The translations under genes and the position numbers were made by a program. Source: Carcharhinus longimanus (taxonomy: Eukaryota). Taken from it: a stretch of 64,000 nucleotides of DNA. Under the pieces are notes generated by a model, which ran no database searches, was not told where the DNA came from, and saw nothing but the letters and a program-made list of their open reading frames with translations. This document shows positions 10,480-15,274 of this stretch, piece by piece. Where the stretch lies: assembly GCA_030264375.1 (NCBI GenBank), contig JASCQW010000032.1:30241016-30305015 (forward strand), given 5' to 3'. Position 1 is the stretch's first letter. Each line of letters opens with the position of its first letter.

Positions 10480-10721
10480 ATTCATTCATTCTTGTATGCT
10501 TTGCCTGAAGGCAGATCCTTGGCTCATTGCCTTTGGATGCTTCATCCTGAGCATTTTCTTGGCAGTGTTTTCCAGTGATGGTTTACAATTGCTTTCTACT
10601 CTCAGGGCAGGGCAAAGAGGCAGATCCCAAGTTGACCTCAGTTAGAGTAGGAATTGAACCAGCACTGATGGTGTAATTTTGAACTACGTGCTAGCCATCT
10701 AACCAACTAAGCTAACTGGCA
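10480..10721 (-). mobile_element. tRNA-derived SINE, probably with an RTE-related body/tail
   Basis: Minus head TTAGCTTAGTTGG (A box) and GGTTCAATTCC (B box), body AAGCAATTGTAAACCATCACT, (GAAT)n tail; interrupts the CR1. Confidence 0.7.
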
Positions 10722-11364: not shown

Positions 11365-11922
11365 ACGGGTGTCATATTTCTAAAGTGTATACGGGAACAA
11401 AATAATCTTGAGACTCATAAGCATTGATCTTTGAAGGTGGCAGGACACATTGGCAGAGTAAATCAGAAAGCAAATGGGGTAATTGGCTTCATAAGTAGAG
11501 GTATTGTGTACAAAATAAGGAAGTTATGCTGAATCTTCACCAAGTTCTGGTTAGGCCACAGGTAGAGACAATGAACGATTTCTGAAAAAAGGATGAGATC
11601 TTAATAAAAATGAACTTACAACAGAGCATGGAATGGGACCAATTGGATTGTTCTACAGAGAACTGGCATGAACTCAGTGTATGGAATGTTCTCCTTCTGT
11701 GTCATAATGACTCTCTAAGCTGGATTTTGTTGTCCTGACATCAGATTTGATGGGCTGAATGGCCTCCTTCTGCACTGTAGGACTTTTATGATTCTATGGA
11801 AAATGAATTTGGATAATTGCTCNNNNNNNNNNNNNNNNNNNNNNNNNNNNNNNNNNNNNNNNNNNNNNNNNNNNNNNNNNNNNNNNNNNNNNNNNNNNNN
11901 NNNNNNNNNNNNNNNNNNNNNN

Positions 11923-12036
11923 TGTCTGAGGCCAGAACTCTCCATTCACCTGACGAAGGGGCTAACCCCGAAAGCTTGTGAGTTTATTATCAAATAAATC
12001 GGTTGGACTAAAACCTGGTGTTGTCAGACTTTTTAC
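11923..12036 (+). mobile_element. Penelope-like element terminal repeat (second PLE family) abutting a gap
   Basis: Hammerhead core, then AATAAA (11993-11998), then the GTTGGACTAAAACCTGGTGTTGT terminus typical of PLE pLTR ends. Confidence 0.75.
11945..11982 (+). ncRNA. Minimal type-I hammerhead ribozyme (PLE-associated)
   Basis: TTCAC-CTGACGA-A-GGGG-CTAA-CCCC-GAAA-GC-TT-GTGAG: core boxes CUGANGA and GAAA, perfect stem II, stem I UCAC/GUGA, palindromic AGCU in place of stem III. Confidence 0.8.
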
Positions 12037-12367
12037 CGTGTTTTAGAGTCAAGGGTAAAGAAGACACACCCACTTTTTACAGTGCCTGCTGCCGGAGCTA
12101 GCAGTAAGCTTACACATCCGGAGAGCTTTAAAGGTCTTGATGAGGAAAGTAGTTAAGGTAAATGGGTAGGATTGATGGTGGGAGGTGGGGGAGGAGTGCT
12201 TAGTCAGCTCAGGTCTTGGCAAAGTGTTGGGTCAGGCCTTGCAGAGGGCAGTGAATGGTGCAGTTAGAACCTCAGGATAGGACCTTGGGGTTGGGGAGTT
12301 AGGATGGACCAGGCCTTGGTGCGTTGGGGTGTGAGGTATGGGTCGGATTAAACCATGGAGAAGTGTC

Positions 12368-14234: not shown

Positions 14235-14408
14235 AAAGATGTGTAGATTAGAAGGATTGGCCATACTAAATCGCCCCTTAGTGTGAAGGAGAGACTATCC
14301 AGGGTAAATGCATGGGGTATGGGTATAGGCCCTGGGTGGGATTGCAGATTTGATGGGCTGAATGGCAACCTTCTACACTGTAGGGATTCTATGATCCTGT
14401 GACTCCAT
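14235..14408 (+). mobile_element. 5'-truncated HE1-type SINE
   Basis: GGATTGGCCATACTAAAT..CCTGGGTGGGATTG..GATGGGCTGAATGG..GGGATTCTATGAT matches the 3' half of the other HE1 copies here. Confidence 0.8.
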
Positions 14409-15274
14409 GGAAAATGAGTTTGGATAATTGCTCAAAGGAAGAATGGCCAGATCTTGAGGAGCTGGGGAGGAGCTAATGTCACCATACCCGAGGAAAAGTG
14501 AATGCATTCCTGAGAGGAGGGAGGGAATTGGTGAGGAGAAAGGATCAGAAGTGGGAAGAAAGTTTTATAAATTAGAAAATGTATGCATGTCTTGAAAGCG
14601 CCTGTCCAAAGCCAGCAGGCGGTATGTACAGAGTTAAAACCATCTTTTGTTGTTAGCATGAATTATCTGCTGTTGCCCACATGAATGTTGTATTACAGTA
14701 CTCAGCTAACAGCTCAGGTGACAGTGGAACAAGCATTCACTGTACTGTATAAACTCCTGAAATGTCCACACTGGCTTCACTTGGAGCATTCACAACCAGT
14801 ATCAGACTATTGGAATCTAATTCGTCTGTCTACCAGAGCCTTTCTCTCCCGCTAGGACAGAAGGAGCTATTGTAGTTTCGCTGGAGTTAGTTAACACTGA
14901 CAAAACCCCTTATCTCCTGGAAATGAATCGAAGGGGGCCCTTCATAAACAAGACTCTGTCCACCATTGAATGCAAATTGGGCTGGGGAAAACAAGACAGG
15001 TAGAACCCAATTCTGGGATTCCCACTTCATTCCTATTCTGTGGTATTATTAAGGGTGAAGGGAATCATAAGCCTACACACTGTAATCCCGATCCTCACTC
15101 CATTGTGGGCATGAAGATGTCAGATTCCCCTCAACTTTCATGGAATCGAACAGGTTCTGAAGGAGATATGGTTTTTATCAGCTTAGAGATGTTGTGAATG
15201 ATGGCAGAAGCGGGGGTGGGGGGGTGGGGGAGGAGTTATTCTGCTGTGGGGAACCTTTTGACAGGTACAGTTGA

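Follow-up and report, generated by a model that had tools for sequence, protein, structure and literature searches.

A young Penelope-like element of the shark Carcharhinus longimanus with a minimal type I hammerhead motif in its 3′ terminus

The window, by which we mean the whole 64,000-nt stretch of contig JASCQW010000032.1 that was analysed, contains a single motif with the form of a minimal type I hammerhead ribozyme, placed next to an assembly gap and within the visible end of a Penelope-like element. The features of the locus, in window coordinates, are as follows.

11742–11822, forward strand: left flank of the gap, non-Penelope sequence, 82% alike to window positions 14345–14433
11823–11922, no strand: 100-N gap, a placeholder whose length does not give the true size
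11923–12043, forward strand: 3′ terminus of a Penelope-like element (pseudo-LTR end) as far as it is visible, 121 nt, 96–98% identical to its best genomic siblings
11944–11983, forward strand: minimal type I hammerhead, predicted from sequence and folding
11944–11949 with 11978–11983, forward strand: stem I, 6 bp including one G-U pair, with A11944–U11983 as the outermost pair
11945–11949, forward strand: TTCAC, in the 5′ strand of stem I
11950–11956, forward strand: core box CUGACGA (C3–A9), with G8 within a CpG
11957, forward strand: additional A, placed between 9 and 10.1 in hammerhead numbering
11958–11969, forward strand: stem II, GGGG/CCCC with loop CUAA, four G-C pairs of which the first is G10.1–C11.1 (G11958–C11969)
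11970–11973, forward strand: GAAA, containing G12, A13 and A14, with G12 within a CpG
11973–11976, forward strand: palindrome AGCU (A15.1-G-C-U16.1) in place of helix III
11977, forward strand: U17, with the predicted cut at 11977/11978 deduced from hammerhead numbering
11978–11982, forward strand: GTGAG, in the 3′ strand of stem I
11993–11998, forward strand: AATAAA, a putative poly(A) signal 15 nt past the predicted cut, followed by a GU/U-rich stretch

Reading the sequence confirmed the positions that a first-pass annotation had given for the hammerhead boxes, stems I and II, the GAAA, the palindrome, the AATAAA and the gap; the stem I pairs that it named are also present, but the helix extends by one further pair, A11944–U11983. 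The core CUGANGA, the GAAA and the NUH triplet required of a hammerhead are all found (as CUGACGA, GAAA and CUU), nucleotides 11976–11977 being TT, and the predicted cut after CUU at 11977 agrees with standard hammerhead numbering. By its sequence, the motif belongs to an already described arrangement, the minimal hammerhead (min-HHR) that metazoan Penelope-like elements carry in their pseudo-LTRs (Cervera and De la Peña 2014, PMC4209133). As set out in the available text of that paper, the two share the type I topology, the lack of helix III, the palindromic 15.2–16.2 positions, the extra nucleotide at 9/10.1 and the G10.1–C11.1 pair, and the window motif shows every sequence feature listed there, although its 4-bp stem II is short compared to those min-HHRs. 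The proposed identity as a minimal type I hammerhead with an AGCU palindrome is thus borne out, both features being present in the sequence.

Folded in its context, stem II is predicted to pair with a probability of 0.96–0.99, and the fold energy by itself is unremarkable (z = −1.78, with 13 of 200 shuffles folding equally well). Dinucleotide shuffles of the window, 300 in number, contained no equally strict match and 14 loose ones; these counts, combined with the genome copy numbers against reversed-pattern controls given below, led us to reject a chance origin of the motif. The Rfam hammerhead models, proposed in the first-pass annotation as a check, gave no match to the window motif up to E = 10, and likewise none in seven loci bearing family copies; we do not count this against the motif, because family copies with clear cores are missed too.

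Across the 2.68 Gb genome, the identical 38-mer occurs in 223 copies, compared to none for the reversed-pattern control. A close pattern, which leaves N7, stem II and N17 free and fixes the GTG at the 3′ side of stem I, has 17,503 matches genome-wide against one for the control, and a looser pattern 27,609 against 189. The 29-mer lying 3′ of the ribozyme, which marks the subfamily, has 13,053 matches and no control match. The window motif is therefore one of more than 17,000 similar Penelope-derived minimal hammerhead motifs in this genome. This resembles the picture drawn in the text we cite from PMC4209133, in which min-HHRs number in the thousands, mostly as single copies, and group into consensus families that show compensatory changes; the 17,503–27,609 matches exceed the approximately 4,000 reported there for coelacanth and 9,000 for Xenopus, counts that were obtained by a different method.

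A second family is marked by the palindrome ACGU (744 matches versus seven for the control). Its copies (L093–L122) have a different stem I, lack AATAAA and seem to start a few bases before the core. An AATAAA within 30 nt of the cut site was found in 63 of 73 AGCU-type copies versus none of 30 ACGU-type copies. The first four stem I pairs of the ACGU family differ from those of the AGCU family, yet pair in 23–26 of the 30 copies, and the two families may be separate in origin.

No remains of an ORF were found within the window, and the parent element was characterised from its siblings. The 5′ side of the window element is lost in the gap, across which close siblings bear pieces of GIY-YIG or reverse transcriptase (RT) sequence upstream on the same strand. 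In a gap-free sister copy, the core lies approximately 210 nt past the stop of an ORF encoding RT and GIY-YIG; among the 20 best ORF loci, the terminus is found 3′ of the main ORF on the same strand in 15, while four of the remainder are short contigs without a terminus and one bears the terminus on an inverted copy. The best homologues of the ORF are shark proteins with 80–88% identity, of which three of four contain RVT_1 above the Pfam cut-off; GIY-YIG falls below it (20.1 versus 22.6, E about 8e-4). A CX4CxxC linker separates RT and endonuclease in all four homologues, and a linker of this type is also present in four genomic copies (L047, L052, L053 and L058). A single ORF with RT and C-terminal GIY-YIG is hence seen among family members and homologues, and the suggestion that the motif sits in a Penelope terminus is upheld by the ORF of the sister copies and by the position of the terminus relative to it.

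According to Craig et al. 2021 (PMC8557442, in the text available), a CX2–5CxxC linker characterises Neptune and Nematis. We accordingly classify the element as Penelope-like with a linker of the Neptune/Nematis type, an assignment made to the two jointly and by linker instead of by an RT tree; an initial guess of the Poseidon clade was dropped because the CX4CxxC linker is present. The likeness to Neptune/Nematis EN+ elements, as far as the cited parts of PMC8557442 describe them, covers RT with C-terminal GIY-YIG, the linker and 5′ truncation, as well as inverted upstream copies that break short-read assemblies and an optional 30–40 bp tail. The family resembles PAc, a Poseidon element of Anolis carolinensis, in carrying a hammerhead in its pseudo-LTR, whereas the ORF of PAc is described as starting inside the ribozyme (PMC11167929, in part). 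Protein-assisted cleavage has been demonstrated for PAc in that source and would be a conjecture for the present family.

Among vertebrates, the consulted text of PMC4209133 names Xena, Poseidon and Neptune elements, with sharks not among the animals named there, and our paper searches returned no description of a shark Penelope hammerhead, though supplements may contain one. A preprint (bioRxiv 10.64898/2026.07.22.740005, in the portion available) reports, for one chondrichthyan too, animal non-LTR retrozymes with type I hammerheads derived from Penelope termini; eight of nine dimers tested there did not cleave. Retrozymes are described there as tandem non-coding units, whereas the window copy is one lone terminus from a family that carries an ORF. 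A retrozyme identity was rejected for the locus, where the readable sequence holds no tandem array and the window only one motif.

Pieces 88% identical to the element ORF also occur in two shark proteins, a NOXP20-like isoform (P0006) and a septin 5a isoform (P0011), which likely reflect annotation read-through into insertions or exonisation.

The window copy differs by 2–8 changes from 29 siblings over the 121 nt, in agreement with the earlier suggestion of a young element. Its 3′ end lies 66 nt past the cut site, at the first of two end sites used in the family, without the 30–35 nt tail. Among 60 copies with sufficient gap-free sequence, the 3′ end falls 60–69 nt past the cut site in 34, 95–105 nt in 18 and elsewhere in eight, placing 52 of the 60 in one of two clusters, in line with the optional tail of Neptune/Nematis. 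The two clusters, approximately 35 nt apart, fit the optional tail described in PMC11167929, where it is linked to two internal starts of reverse transcription and the genomic ends of PAc lie at two sites 30–40 nt apart (available text). Positions 12002–12009, past the AATAAA, are the complement of a section of the optional tail that sister copies such as L013 possess. Of three copies with the tail, one folded so that a stem encloses the first 3′ end site.

A gap beside the window copy is normal for the family: at least 60 of 94 copies, taken from the first 96 of the 13,053 matches, have one on the 5′ side. Siblings with element sequence on both sides of a 100-N gap were compared by a method blind beyond approximately 750 nt, after removal of one duplicate locus and of three gaps that differ in size; here, 16 gaps take the place of −53 to 503 nt of element and three that of an inversion junction. 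Within 500 nt upstream, nine of the 29 close siblings carry an inverted piece and one a complete same-strand partner, both counts being lower bounds because 21 of the 29 are bounded by gaps. Tandem Repeats Finder detected no tandem array at the locus outside the gap.

The left flank, 11742–11822, has its look-alike (14345–14433) 2.6 kb downstream; the final 25 bases of this pair have no further occurrence in the genome, and the flank ends in the same five bases that precede the equivalent of 11923 in sister elements. The likeness reflects either a templated duplication at the 5′ junction of the insertion or an erroneous extension of the contig through a repeat tail.

These observations bear on the first-pass proposal that the gap may hide the young element or a tandem partner. 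In its strongest form, the gap would contain most of an element, including an upstream terminus on the same strand, making the window copy one half of a working cis dimer. The youth of the copy and the partial tandems described as typical of Penelope-like elements (PMC8557442, in the text cited) speak for such an arrangement, as do gap sizes that are mere placeholders and the limited reach of the sibling estimate. Against it, the siblings favour inverted over same-strand partners, so that a tandem partner does not stand as the likely reading; none of the 20 best ORF loci has two complete same-strand termini around the ORF, 19 of them have stops inside the match, and the left flank of the gap is devoid of element sequence. 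Furthermore, in the energy model a natural inverted pair folds into a hairpin of −207.6 kcal/mol that buries the ribozyme. We consider a hidden cis dimer very improbable.

Covariation was scored with stems anchored on the core boxes, without a fitted alignment. Fourteen copies that span the motif were picked by the downstream 29-mer and by nothing else; nine of them have A-U and five have G-C at stem II pair 2, with no mixed combination. Thirty unselected copies yielded 24 distinct stems, of which 20 have a Watson-Crick pair 3 (12 A-U, eight G-C; shuffle mean 12.0, with the observed 20 attained in six of 5,000 shuffles) and 16 a Watson-Crick pair 4 (attained in 45 of 5,000), while pairs 2 and 5 show no excess over shuffles in the same 30 copies (1,814 and 340 of 5,000). 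The same stem II pattern is stronger in a set enlarged to 51 distinct stems, for which 40 copies were chosen by eye for variety. These counts include related copies, and a rough tree suggests that they may reflect perhaps three events defining subfamilies; the tree, of 55 copies, was built on 92 nt of flank, a length that gives no support, and served only to show that pair types cluster. Stem II pairs 2–4 covary between subfamilies. The covariation on which the first-pass annotation had made its proposal depend is thus present in stem II, as compensatory changes between subfamilies, but not in stem I, which is nearly invariant within the AGCU family and shows no covariation there.

The core itself is decaying in the family. 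Five of the 14 sister copies have broken cores, and four of these five carry a G-to-A change at the CpG holding G8 or G12. Both catalytic guanosines lie within a CpG in this subfamily (11954–11955 and 11969–11970). The window core is intact because the copy is young, and its intactness does not speak for function, since youth accounts for it and sister cores are already breaking.

N17 is U or A in 12 of the 14 copies, which were picked without use of the core, with C in one and G in one; among 73 AGCU-type copies, U is the commonest N17 (39). The N17 distribution in the 14 copies stands against a reading in which the family motif no longer cleaves and has been kept as a protein-bound RNA structure or for transcript end formation together with the AATAAA, as do the alternative palindrome of the ACGU family and the anole motif, which cleaved upon addition of protein (PMC11167929, text available). 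In favour of that reading, CUU ranks near the bottom of the NUH triplets in trans-acting hammerheads (PMC8879150, in the part consulted) while U is the commonest N17, and the anole element was inserted in vitro without need for cleavage, with no RNA-seq ends at the site in what PMC11167929 reports in the text cited. In addition, none of 18 resolved 5′ junctions, read by eye, starts at the cut site, a mapping of little power given the gaps that interrupt at least 60 of 94 copies. A family kept for purposes other than cleavage seems to us very improbable.

In the energy model the active dimer (−22.3 kcal/mol) lies 2.5 kcal/mol above two monomers (−24.8) and a mispaired dimer reaches −28.6, so the active form is not favoured, in line with the protein dependence of the anole element as described in PMC11167929 (in part). 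According to the available text of PMC4209133, no cleavage was found for a single minimal motif. Taken with the youth of the copy, a gap that is ordinary for the family, the mostly inverted partners and the weak CUU triplet, these points suggest that the lone window copy probably cuts little or no RNA.

Overall, the locus is very probably what it appears to be, the 3′ end of a young Penelope-like copy whose minimal type I motif is intact but which is likely a passive passenger that cuts little or no RNA. Selection on the ribozyme would have acted in active master elements. In these, by analogy with the parts of PMC4209133, PMC6765202 and PMC11167929 available to us, a partial-tandem transcript would bring two motifs together via AGCU:AGCU, and the paired motifs would cut slowly after U17, probably with the help of the element's protein. 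Reverse transcription would start internally, 60–69 or 95–105 nt past the cut site, and proceed from there through a ribozyme that is either uncut or re-ligated. The presence of ORF, ribozyme and end in one copy implies a template RNA in which the cut site had stayed whole or been rejoined; a read-through linear template and a re-ligated circle are both compatible with these data. The outcome would be ribozyme-bearing stubs like the window copy, often with an inverted piece on the 5′ side, and such pieces would break short-read assemblies.

Two readings would assign the copies a role in the host. In one, thousands of intact single hammerheads, most with AATAAA just past the cut site, would act in host transcripts through trans cleavage switched on by an active element. 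This is conceivable for host pre-mRNAs because every AGCU copy can pair with every other and the protein of the element can help them to fold. If this were so, the CpG decay of G8 and G12 would be a route by which copies are disarmed; we regard it as a long shot. In the other, a host transcript would have come to use the window copy itself as its cleavage or poly(A) cassette, as the intact core and the AATAAA 15 nt past the cut site might invite one to think. Both properties, however, are family-wide, and no host exon was recognised in the window frames by Pfam, a weak test that misses short exons: among the 37 gap-free long frames searched of the window's 60, a set that excludes those spanning gaps and a few more, 36 had no match and one a weak DUF match. 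Adoption by the host can be given almost no credence.

The single locus matters little compared to the family, which constitutes a large, young set of Penelope hammerheads, and in which the natural stem II variants and the two mapped 3′ end sites offer material for studying the role of the ribozyme in the Penelope cycle, a role called unclear in the cited text of PMC8557442.

Elsewhere in the window, positions 10639–10704 on the reverse strand give a weak tRNA-like match below the Rfam threshold (25.4 versus 29 bits), which is probably the head of a tRNA-derived SINE. In the wider genome, one family copy adjoins a reverse-strand frame (L066:17–526), which we take to resemble a cysteine-rich ADAM-type exon; because of this neighbourhood, some family copies are probably intronic.
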